A stretch of DNA of 64,000 nt from an uncultured Gammaproteobacteria bacterium (lineage in GTDB: Bacteria; Pseudomonadota; Gammaproteobacteria; JBGSLN01): contig OY968770.1 in assembly GCA_963695245.1 (NCBI GenBank), forward strand, positions 1,559,198-1,623,197, written 5' to 3'. Shown here piece by piece: positions 2,696 through 58,586 of this stretch. Made by a program: the position numbers and the translations under genes. The notes below the pieces were generated by a model. The model was given only the letters and a program-made list of their open reading frames with translations, was not told where the DNA came from and made no database searches. Every line of letters starts with the position of its first letter. The stretch's first letter is position 1.

Positions 2696-2804
2696 AAATG
2701 TAGGTTGGCGCTGACGAAGGAAGCCCAACAGTCGTGGCAATTAAAAAAGCCGTAATTAAATGAATACCCTGTTGGGCTTCCTTCGTCAGCGCCAACCTAC
2801 ATTT
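2696..2804. repeat. REPIN-like element copy 1 (36-bp perfect inverted arms)
   Basis: AAATGTAGGTTGGCGCTGACGAAGGAAGCCCAACAG (2696-2731) and its exact reverse complement (2769-2804). Confidence 0.95.
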
Positions 2805-2888
2805 ATTAGAGCTGAAAGTTTAAAAATCAGCAAATAAAAAGTCGATTCTAATTATCATAAAAGTAATATTTTAAGTTTTTTTTTTCAT

Positions 2889-2908
2889 ATTAATGTTCCC
2901 TTAAGGTA
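2889..2908 (+). promoter_or_regulatory. Possible PmrA-type direct repeat upstream of the giant effector-like gene
   Basis: ATTAATGTT-CC-CTTAAGGTA resembles the Legionella/Coxiella cTTAATatT-N2-cTTAATatT element; AT-rich context lowers significance. Confidence 0.35.
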
Positions 2909-2969
2909 ATTAACAAAAGAATAAGGTAAAATTTAACTAAGTTAAAAAACTTGTGCAAGAGGTGTCTAA

Positions 2970-5900
2970 ATGATGGGAAATACTAAAAAAACTTATGAAA
3001 TGACTATGTCATTATCCCATTTTTCTATTGATATACTGCGTGGCTACCTGCTTGTGAATCAGACTCAGACTCATGAGCTTGGAAATTTAGTTTTACAGGT
3101 GAGTGAGGCCAGAAAAGCTTTGATGCTGGCTTATGCTAACTTACAAAAAGATGAAAGTTCAGAACGATTGCAAAGTGCTTTAAACGAAGCTTTATCAAGT
3201 TATCTAATTTCTTTAAAAGAGAGTTTCAAGGATCTGCAAACTATTACTGCTGAAAGTGCAGCCAGCTTTTCTATAGAAGATTGTTTAAAAGTATCGGAAT
3301 CTATCGATGAAGTTTCCGCTGTATTCAAAGGCACTTTAACTGAGACTAGATTTCAGGAAAACTTCGAGTCTACCCAGTTACAGTTAAACGATCATCTTGA
3401 GGAACATACCAGCAAAAGCCACTTTGTTTTTGAAAGACGGCCTGAAACTGCTTTTGCAGAACCGTATGTATCTTTAGTTTTTAACGATTTTAAAGAGTCC
3501 TCCAGAAAAATTTTATTAGGAAAAGGTGCTAACTCAGAAGTTTATTACTGTCATTTTAATGGAACACCTTATGTGATACGACAACAACGTTTTGAATCTC
3601 CTGCTACTGAATTTGAAATTATAAACGCTATTCGTGAAGATGATTCAGAAGGTCTGTTTCCAAAAGGCGCCTTAAGTCATGATAAAAAAGATGAAGTACT
3701 CGAAGCAGGCGCAACACTGCCTCGTTTTAATACTGCACAGATGCCTCACCGAATATTAGATTTATTAAATGGACTTCAGTTTTTACATAATAGAAATATT
3801 TTTCATCGAGATTTAAAACCCGCAAACTTGATTCAATTACCGAATGGTAAAGTTGCAATCATTGATTTTGGTGAAGCCATCCGAGCAGAAACTGGTTTGG
3901 GTGATTTACAGGGTGGAACCCATTCCTATTTACCACCAGAGCATCTCGCTTCTGGAGTGAAACAAAGTGAAGCCAAATTTGATCAAGCGAAACGTGATGT
4001 CTGGGCTTTGGGTATCACAGTTTATGAGATGATATTTGGTGAATTGCCTTATGGTGATATTTCTGGGCATAAAAGAAGAGAATTAATCGAACGCATACAA
4101 CAAGAAGGTTGGAAAGCCTGTGAAGCTGCTTACTCTGAAGATGGGACTTATCAATTTAAAAAAATTAATGAATTGAATATCCCAGAAGTTCAAAAAGCAA
4201 AGTTAAATGAATTTTTTCTCAAAAGTTTAGATCCAAAACCACAAAGCCGTGCTACAGCAACCACATTGATGCAACTTGATTTATTTCAAGCAATGCCGGA
4301 AGATAAATCTGGCTTAAGGATGGAAGAAGCACTTCAGATGCAATATCAACTAGATGATAAAAGAACGATTGCAGGACAATCTTTGTCTGCGATGGCGGAA
4401 TATGCCTGTAACCTGATTTTACAAAATAAAAACCCACACCTTGACGTTGACCGTAAAAATCTTCCAGATCAAATTGAAAAAATGCTTGAAAATTTTATGG
4501 GTGATGTCCTCTTGGCAGAAGCAATACATGAACGTGTTTGGAAAGATGTCAGGCAATTACACATGTTTGCCGGTTACGATGCCACAGTCTTAAAAATGTC
4601 CCCTTCAGCCCTTAATCTAGAAGAAGAACTCAAAGTTAAGCTGGATAACGAGCAGATAAAATTGCTGGCTAAATGTCTTGATGGCAAATTTGATAAAGCT
4701 GATAAAGTTAAAATGAATGAAATGCTTACATCCGAACAGTTGGTTGTAAAAGCCATTGGCCAGTATATCAAGGAAAATTACCAAAGATTTCAAAATAAGC
4801 GTCAAGAGCAATTAGCTTTGGAAATACAAAAGGAAAGTAAAATAAAACCCACATTAGCGGGACGTGAAGAAGTAGAAATTGCTGGCAGTTTTTCTTTTAA
4901 ACCTTTCAATAATCTATTTGAAAAACTTATCAACAATTATACGGGTAGTTTAGAGCAACAAGCTTTGGTTGAAGACCTTAAACGAGGTAACAAACATGGG
5001 TTGGGGCACAGTTTTTTTAATGAACATTTACAAAAATATTTTGCGGATTTAGGGTTAGTAGAGGGTGTGGCAAAAGCAGGTAATCCTGAAGCATCGGTTA
5101 AAACGCTTTACCAAATTTTTAATGAAGGCAATGCTGAATTCGGCGTGAATAAAAACCCTGGTAAAGCTGCTATCGTTTTGGCTTTAGCTGGACGACTTAA
5201 AGTTTTTTCAAGCAATGATAAACGGAATGCGGAAACCAACGCTCGATATCTTATCGAACTTGGCAGACATTTCGAAGCTTATGGTGATCTCAATAGAGCT
5301 TATGACTGTTATGATGCAGCATATTTAGCGTACCGGCAATTAAAGCAGGTAGATGCCAAGAGTCTAAAGGTGCTTGAAGAAACTGCTGAAATTGCAAATG
5401 TAAGATTAAAAAATGACAGTGATGCCTGTCAGGACAAAATCGTTGATATATTAAAAAAACTCATTGATGAGGATCCTAAAAATATCGAAAAAGCTCAAAA
5501 TTTTTTGATGACTAAAGTTGGTAACTCAGCCAAAACCCCTAAAATGGAAGCTTTTGACGTATTTATATCTCAGAAGATGCAATCTTCATCTAACACCAAC
5601 AACATTTTGGTAGCCATTCGAGCTATAGGAAATGCCATCACAAATTTTCGTACAAGTTTTCAAGATGAAAAAGTGAATCAAAGTGAACATATCATATATT
5701 TACTAGAAATCACCCAGGAGTTTGGCAAAATATTGGCCGCTGAAAATAACGAAGATGCCAAGCCTTTAATCAACCAACTTAAAAGCTTTGAACAATATTT
5801 GAGAAGCAATGAAAAGAGCCTTGAACTTTTACAAAAACATATGTTTGCTTTGGCTAAAGCTGCACAAGTATATTCAGAAACAAAAAATCTGGGGCTGAGA

Positions 5901-58072: not shown

Positions 58073-58157
58073 TTTAACGGGCAACTTTAAAAAACACTTG
58101 CCTGAGGCAGAAGCTTTGTTGTAATTTGGAAGTCTGGCAACTAACACAGGGGAGTGT

Positions 58158-58388
58158 TTGATGGTTTCTATTAACAACGCTGAGCAAGCATCAAAAAAAG
58201 CAGCATGTGAAGAGCGTCGAAGACTATGGAATCTTAGAAAAGATCGTCCGGCTTTTCGATCTGGTTTTTTTATTGTTGAACTTTCTGATAAAGGAAAACC
58301 TAAAATTGTGATGCAAACTGATAAAAGAGGCTTTGAAATTAACACGCCTTCCAATGAGACAGAGCCTCATCACTCAAATAGACCTTAA
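58158..58388 (+). CDS. Small hypothetical protein
   Basis: RBS GGGGAG; shares a motif with the next ORF; TTG 58158 or ATG 58161 start. Confidence 0.55.
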   Translation: MMVSINNAEQASKKAACEERRRLWNLRKDRPAFRSGFFIVELSDKGKPKIVMQTDKRGFEINTPSNETEPHHSNRP

Positions 58389-58477
58389 TAAACAACAAAA
58401 ATTAGTAATAATGTAGTAAAGACAAGAAATTAGATAACTTTATGACTTACAAAAACCTTCGATTTACAGTCAAAATA

Positions 58478-58586
58478 AATGTAGGTTGGGCTGACGCTTC
58501 GAAGCCCAACAGCCGTGGCAACTAATATAAGGCAGTAATTAAATGAATACCCTGTTGGGCTTCGAAGCGTCAGCCCAACCTACATT
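58478..58586. repeat. REPIN-like element copy 6 (loop variant CGCTTCG in both arms)
   Basis: AATGTAGGTTGGGCTGACGCTTCGAAGCCCAACAG and exact reverse complement. Confidence 0.95.

Follow-up and report, generated by a model that had tools for sequence, protein, structure and literature searches.

How do the two arms of an inverted repeat come to carry the same changes? The question is raised by a 64,000-nucleotide stretch of DNA from an uncultured gammaproteobacterium (GTDB lineage JBGSLN01; assembly GCA_963695245.1, contig OY968770.1, positions 1,559,198–1,623,197 of the forward strand), hereafter the window, which holds five full doublets of a repetitive extragenic palindromic (REP) sequence. 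These doublets are ~107 bp long, their arms, of 34–37 nt, are perfectly inverted, and a change in one arm is repeated in mirror image in the other. The elements are a REPIN/RAYT system of known kind, made up of REP doublets forming hairpins (REPINs) and a REP-associated tyrosine transposase (RAYT). Across the genome, mirror-image variation between arms proved to be real but local, affecting the bulge and loop of each REP hairpin. The best explanation of the data as a whole, to which we assign a probability of roughly 0.6, is that these are REPINs with mirroring restricted to the apex, in which a changed apex is copied in place onto the partner arm.

Each element consists, from the outside inwards, of AAT, GTAG, a stem half (GTTGGGCT), the loop, the second stem half (AGCCCAAC) and AG, followed by the spacer and then by the exact reverse complement of the arm. 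The stem halves are of 8 bp and the loop of 9 nt (consensus GACGAAGGA), while the spacer, which separates two head-to-head GTAG-tagged REPs, is ~39 nt long, asymmetric and partly conserved. Folded as single-stranded DNA, the element forms one long hairpin in which the spacer stays unpaired (−45.5 to −48.5 kcal/mol, z −13.5 to −16.7, for 4 strands of 3 window copies). A 31-nt arm core gave 7 matches in the window at ≤3 mismatches against 0 in 100 shuffles, and every window copy is intergenic. The doublet at 2697–2803, between an open reading frame (ORF) ending at 2691 and another starting at 2970, has a C bulge (GGTTGGCGCTGA) and the loop CGAAGGA on both arms. Consensus arms are found in the doublet at 11272–11378 (loop CGAAGGA), between a tRNA gene (11071–11144) and an ORF starting at 11516, and in that at 15551–15658, which has a convergent ORF ending on each side (at 15536 and 15713). 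The doublet at 48545–48651 combines consensus loops with a mirrored A-to-C change at −2 outside GTAG (ACT...AGT), its palindrome spanning 48542–48654, and that at 58478–58586 carries the loop type CGCTTCGA, found in 27 arms genome-wide, on both arms. No strand is assigned to any of the five.

A preliminary description of this DNA had reported these five elements with perfectly inverted GTAG REP arms, and they were found where it had placed them. The three variants that it took to be private to single copies turned out to be of different kinds: the ACT flank (ACTGTAGGTTGG) is rare, with 3 arms genome-wide of which 2 belong to the copy at 48545, while the GGCGCTG insertion is present in 58 arms and the CGCTTCG loop in 27. 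Its statement that arms match within each copy is correct for the five window copies, but genome-wide the arms are identical in only 74 of 257 doublets (37 aligned columns); the window copies are unrepresentative of the family. The mean difference between arms was 2.46 within a doublet compared with 4.00 between doublets.

A single 2,165,533-bp contig of 38.1% G+C (C1 in the coordinates below) contains the window, and in it blastn-short detected 585 arms, an arm being counted when at least 20 of 34 positions were covered. These arms form 257 doublets measuring 83–158 bp from outer end to outer end (251 of them within 101–115 bp, mode 107), and nine more arm pairs are split by ~1.35 kb. ORFs of at least 150 aa cover 84.1% of the genome, though 239 of the 257 doublets lie outside them. 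A test of 10 boundary offsets and 5 lengths found no target-site duplication around the doublets. With 249 of the 257 doublet sequences distinct and the largest identical group having 5 members, the population is old and diverse rather than the outcome of a recent burst; the 5 identical copies, together with 6 collapsed singlets described below, are indirect signs that the doublet may move as one piece. Within the spacer, the right half (ATTAAATGAAT) matches the arms in conservation (96% consensus, with 3.6% non-consensus bases), compared with 12% non-consensus bases in the left half; the independent spacer drift proposed earlier describes the left half only. At AAT and GTAG, non-consensus bases are commoner in left arms than in right arms. 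Taken together, the conservation of the right half-spacer and the excess of non-consensus bases in left arms suggest a second constrained feature that would be orientation-specific.

Mirroring was evaluated by arm typing with custom regular expressions and MAFFT alignments, all in this one genome. Both arms could be typed in 231 of the 257 doublets, the 26 omitted being misfits to the patterns that include most of a heterodimer family, whose short loops escaped loop typing. The same loop was present on both arms in 171 of the 231 typed doublets, compared with 33.9 expected with random partners; as most heterodimers are among the untyped doublets, 171 is the upper limit for symmetric doublets in the full set of 257. 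Symmetric doublets comprise 27 distinct types, the leading ones having 44, 28, 27, 12 and 8 members. Correlation between corresponding left and right columns was high only at the bulge (columns 23–25, Cramer's V 0.58–0.75) and the loop (columns 30–37, V 0.39–0.62) and was near zero in AAT, GTAG, both stem halves and the inner AG. Among rare variants, defined as those present in no more than 3 elements, 3 of 15 in the loop were mirrored and 0 of 49 outside it (AAT 0/3, GTAG 0/5, outer stem 0/22, inner stem 0/13, AG 0/6). A column-wise count of private variants gave 1 mirrored against 17 one-armed, a figure that misrepresents the loop because its bases recur there in varying combinations, and loop haplotypes were used instead: 7 genome-unique loop sequences are each shared by the two arms of a doublet, against 10 private loops on a single arm. 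The preliminary description had invoked either templated correction between arms or strong selection for a perfect hairpin. The data support this only at the apex of each arm, the ~15 nt that comprise bulge and loop: mirrored sites there vary together and show no linkage to adjacent sites. For GTAG, the stems and the inner end, at which the arms decay independently, there is no such support.

The association between sites distinguishes this pattern from common inheritance. Left and right loops, ~70 bp apart, are strongly associated (Cramer's V 0.69), as are left and right bulges, ~85 bp apart (V 0.72). The loop and the bulge of the same arm, only 8 bp apart, are not (V 0.16, not significant), and the loops show V values of 0.14–0.27, mostly not significant, with 14 polymorphic spacer columns. 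Lineages of whole doublets would link the loop type to other variable sites; as that linkage is absent, the mirroring cannot be put down to simple descent. Spacer distance was 10.65 between doublets of the same symmetric loop type and 9.86 between those of different types, and a difference at least as large arose in 940 of 1000 label shuffles. Identical spacer haplotypes are spread over nearly all loop types, and the symmetric C bulge is combined with 7 different loops.

Eight doublets constitute a natural experiment on the same point. They have a derived spacer in common (GTCGTGGCAACTAAAATAGG...AAG) and are nested in a ~260-bp repeat with inverted ends of its own (CTAGTACCATTTCCATTTAATTTTGA), both flanks of which are kept in four copies and one flank in the rest; copies of the composite repeat lie at C1 ~411434–411697, 722765–723028, 1445532–1445795 and 1676794–1677052. 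The copies agree fully or almost fully in flanks, stems and spacer, while the loops differ on both arms: the symmetric loop is GGTCGGA in 5 doublets and CGAAAGA, CGAAGGA and CGCAGGA in 1 each. The cleanest case, at genome position 722843, has both flanks and 0 differences in spacer and stems; its left loop differs from GGTCGGA at four positions, and its right loop mirrors these changes and has a further one that is absent from the left. Because the composite copies were propagated with flanks attached, their loops must have changed in place, and on both arms. Flank matches number 10 on the left and 11 on the right in the genome as a whole, and a possible empty copy at ~1268250–1268370 is without the doublet and ~37 bp beside it.

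The search for a transposase gene flanked by these REPs, proposed along with the identification as a REPIN system, was positive. The sole Pfam Y1_Tnp match in the genome (C1:750112–750450, minus strand, 31.3 bits, cut-off 23) belongs to a RAYT frame at 1354–1890 of locus L001, which has a full doublet of the GGCGCTG type on either side, one 37 nt upstream of the ATG and one just past the stop; the two have opposite spacer orientation and both contain the C bulge (GGTTGGCGCTGA). The protein scores 185.6 bits against NCBIfam REP_Tyr_transpos (NF047646, cut-off 80) and aligns over 160 residues with the TnpA-REP of Escherichia coli (PDB 4ER8, E 6e-41), the HUH motif LPDHLHAL matching LPEHMHCI and the Tyr region IDYIHYNP matching VDYIYINP. 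The frame is not intact, having an in-frame TGA at codon 12 (MEYRRVLIPGC*YFFTVN, with the asterisk marking the stop); the other 166 codons are open. This position is a sense codon in all 70 relatives examined (T in 40, C in 17, S in 10, others in 3), and none of the 70 has a stop in the ten codons that precede it. From the reading frame, the gene may have been recently inactivated, may be expressed by low-level read-through or may be mis-assembled, and it is probably a pseudogene. Its closest relatives are 61–63% identical and taxonomically scattered. Given the TGA and the 249 distinct sequences among 257 doublets, the earlier view that the system is active or recent is doubtful.

The mechanism that we propose to account for apex-local mirroring would involve two steps. 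The apex of one arm would be altered, either through mutation or through a short patch taken over from another of the ~585 arms, and the altered apex would then be copied in place to the partner arm. The most likely route would be a replication template switch between the inverted arms (quasipalindrome correction), in which the nascent outer stem pairs with the complementary stem of the partner arm, copies across the loop and returns in the next stem. With both the start and the return of the switch in the stems, the converted tract would be the part between the stems, as is seen. Template switching is known to make imperfect inverted-repeat arms alike, several nucleotides per event, and homogenising of inverted repeats by this means is established in E. 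coli and yeast according to the available text of three reports (PMC7202029, PMC8604942 and PMC8794818). Fill-in or repair while the element is folded single-stranded could provide an alternative route. GTAG and the stems would lie outside the copied tract and, in live copies, would be maintained by the need for recognition by RAYT. The more specific proposal, that the tips (~15 nt) are kept alike by a RAYT-independent template switch in place, which would be primed within the REP stems and would outpace substitution of spacer bases, is made tentatively, at a little below even odds.

Several observations weigh against copying onto the partner arm. Loops are unlike in 60 of the 231 typed doublets, 42 of these being hybrids of common types. 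A heterodimer subfamily, with 17 doublets listed, of which 14 pair a short GATTA left loop with a bulged, long-loop right arm, persists uncorrected. The symmetric share shows no trend with decay elsewhere in the element (0.74, 0.69, 0.67 and 0.74 in four decay classes), and this flat share fits neither elements that are born symmetric and then decay nor a clear steady state. Unlike-loop doublets, heterodimers and the flat trend all stand against universal or fast copying. Only one composite case (722843) is clean, with both flanks identical, the others having lost one flank. The loop variants CAAAGGA, CGCAGGA, CGGAGGA and CGAAAGGA recur in a genome of another family (G029), which hints at hot positions in the loop, and some symmetric types could stem from recurrent mutation at such positions. 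In addition, the symmetric variants and the TGA are known from the assembly alone, and the mechanism is inferred from one genome in which no copying step was observed.

If mirrored variants instead marked subfamilies of doublets that spread as whole units, with a rare compensatory second mutation being propagated by a transposase that needs a perfect hairpin, it would be expected that two of the three variants first noticed are common (58 and 27 arms), that the sizes of the symmetric types are skewed in a birth-death-like manner (44, 28, 27, 12, 8 and so on) and that rare stem and GTAG variants are all one-armed. This combination of descent and selection is nonetheless unlikely, as loop type is linked neither to the bulge 8 bp away nor to the spacer, nearly all loop types contain the same spacer haplotypes, 7 genome-unique loops are already two-armed although each type has one member, and, among composite copies, both loops differ even when flanks and spacer are identical; moreover, the 17 listed unlike-arm doublets have spread, which indicates that a perfect hairpin is not required. 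A further possibility couples symmetry to transposition: RAYT would move an asymmetric single-stranded intermediate, the missing outer arm would be filled in from the other, and only decay would follow. Excised intermediates with an asymmetric 5' tail have been reported, the restoration of symmetry being named an open issue in the available text of that study (Bertels & Rainey 2011, PMC3116915), and the mirrored variants are confined to the loop and bulge, where changes should not disturb recognition by RAYT, and are absent from GTAG and the stems. Such regeneration would not account for the composite copies, which spread with their flanks and not by REPIN transposition, yet differ in their symmetric loops; nor does the symmetric share drop with decay, and the only RAYT carries a premature stop; regeneration is slightly less likely still than descent with selection. 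Strand-specific base-calling errors surviving assembly or polishing could strike both arms of a palindrome, since the arms are reverse complements and a motif-specific error would affect each in the same way. The private symmetric loops, however, differ from one another and from many copies in the same sequence context, most variants are common to tens of loci and one-armed variants are frequent, and an artefact is accordingly very improbable.

A different origin for the doublets themselves, as ordinary miniature inverted-repeat transposable elements (MITEs) derived by deletion from an insertion sequence (IS), is suggested by nine places in which arms ~1,455 bp apart surround a DDE_Tnp_1 transposase gene. 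This reading is refuted and retains a negligible probability. The IS, of 1,340 bp with a transposase of Pfam family DDE_Tnp_1, has ends of its own that differ from the arms (CTGAGGGATCGTCAC...) and is inserted into the doublet with a 9-bp duplication (CCCAACAGG), whereas the doublets are themselves without target-site duplication. All 9 full copies, 99.7–100% identical, are inside a REP doublet, always at the inner arm end adjoining the GCCGTGG side of the spacer, and the duplication is the same in eight copies and a variant in one. They are located at C1:171777–173116, 289517–290856, 452813–454152, 892987–894326, 1410824–1412163, 1640177–1641516, 1696211–1697551, 1796170–1797509 and 1914828–1916167; a tenth, partial copy likewise abuts an arm. 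Insertion sequences that target REPs include IS1397/ISKpn1 and a REP-targeting IS of Pseudomonas, and the 1,340-bp IS resembles them in occupying REP doublets, its transposase being of the DDE_Tnp_1 family.

Other remains of the family accompany the full doublets. A collapsed palindromic REP singlet of 39 bp (AATGTAGGTTGGGCT, loop, AGCCCAACCTACATT; no strand assigned) lies at 48065–48103 of the window and is one of 6 genome-wide, the others being at C1:85802, 259432, 317880, 823374 and 1418286; all have the order GTAG, stem, one loop, stem, CTAC, and they are what a doublet should leave behind if ~68 nt at its centre were deleted between the direct repeats GTTGGGCT of 8 bp. Arm matching also identified a solitary, degenerate left arm followed by the beginning of a spacer at 61266–61300 (plus strand), a truncated REPIN remnant. 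Elsewhere in the genome, doublets of the heterodimer subfamily (left loop GATTA or GAGTA, right arm bulged) form tandem clusters of 2–3 with ~120-bp spacing, at C1:732307–732653, 760191–760411, 557328–557559 and 930168–930325. Among sequencing runs, three matched, all from one biofilm-metagenome study, the best containing a fraction of 0.11 of the words sampled, and no RNA run was among them. Their contigs that match window positions 1–20000 are pieces of ~200–300 bp at a depth of 2–4, and those at the doublets derive from other copies. An Rfam scan of the window gave gathering scores only for an RNase P RNA (26226–26574) and two tRNA genes (11071–11144 and 20735–20807), the doublets having no family match. 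The ORFs at 31360–47000 resemble, by their sizes only, a dcw (cell-division/cell-wall) cluster.

REPINs are among the commonest bacterial repeats, and their symmetry has been noted but not explained. The family described here contains an internal control, in that mirror positions 70–85 bp apart covary and sites of the same arm 8 bp apart do not; together with composite copies that keep their flanks and swap their loops, this separates arms that were inherited together from arms that were made alike. If copying in place without RAYT is true, the 257 loci would constitute a natural, genome-wide record of quasipalindrome correction and would explain how symmetric REPINs stay symmetric even with a broken transposase gene. 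If it is general in other genomes, the arm conservation used to judge the activity or age of REPINs would partly reflect local copy-correction instead of transposition, and a REPIN population could seem alive after its RAYT had been broken. For annotation, the points to record are the REPIN/RAYT system, the probable RAYT pseudogene and the doublet-targeting IS.

The host's order is represented by 5 genomes in the collection, and the exact stem pattern occurs in none of the other four. The genome from the same genus (80% complete, 340 contigs) had no such REP at ≤2 mismatches and no RAYT match with this query. A genome from the same family (G004) contains 7 related REPs, and the one locus read there is a heterodimer doublet with a 22-bp spacer. 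G029 contains 18 REPs with identical GTAG and stem and mostly an identical loop, clustered around several RAYT genes or fragments ~50% identical to the RAYT described here (C1:2937800–2945950 of that genome; loci L088, L090 and L093–L096); the 107-bp doublet family was not found in G029.

Among known systems, a REP of Coxiella burnetii Dugway, associated with RAYT YP_001425023, has the same GTAG and stem (GTTGGGCT/AGCCCAAC) in the available text of Nunvar et al. 2010 (PMC2817692); its loop is GAGCTTGCGA compared with GACGAAGGA here, and its copy number is tabulated there as 29/38/40 compared with ~585 arms. The E. coli TnpA-REP (4ER8) and its REPs, organised in bacterial interspersed mosaic elements (BIMEs), are likewise comparable in the conserved HUH motif and Tyr region and in the GTAG tag of the REP. 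According to the accessible parts of Di Nocera et al. 2013 (PMC3733652), REPs of E. coli pair as heterodimers with different loop lengths, whereas homodimers predominate here; head-to-head GTAG REP dimers in general have GTAG outside and typically conserved spacers of 20–100 bp, and homodimers and heterodimers coexist in one genome, as they do here. A site-by-site test of mirror correlation against linkage was not found in the portion of that paper available, and the quasipalindrome template switch, here inferred, was not found described for REP doublets in the text at hand (PMC7202029, PMC8604942, PMC8794818). Mirroring that is limited to the hairpin tips and unlinked to neighbouring sites may be new here, not having been met in the accessible parts of the related REPIN literature. 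Compensatory changes in REPINs are already published (Bertels & Rainey 2011, PMC3116915), and, as far as the text consulted extends, symmetric REPINs are a named feature in Pseudomonas. The REPINs of P. fluorescens SBW25 are, in the sections of that study available, inverted REP pairs that form a long hairpin in hundreds of extragenic copies, with a RAYT flanked by the same REPs and arms more conserved than the spacer, as in the present family. Compared with SBW25 as portrayed there, the family described here differs in its unpaired spacer with a strongly conserved right half, in mirroring that is confined to the bulge and loop, and in the interrupted frame of its RAYT.

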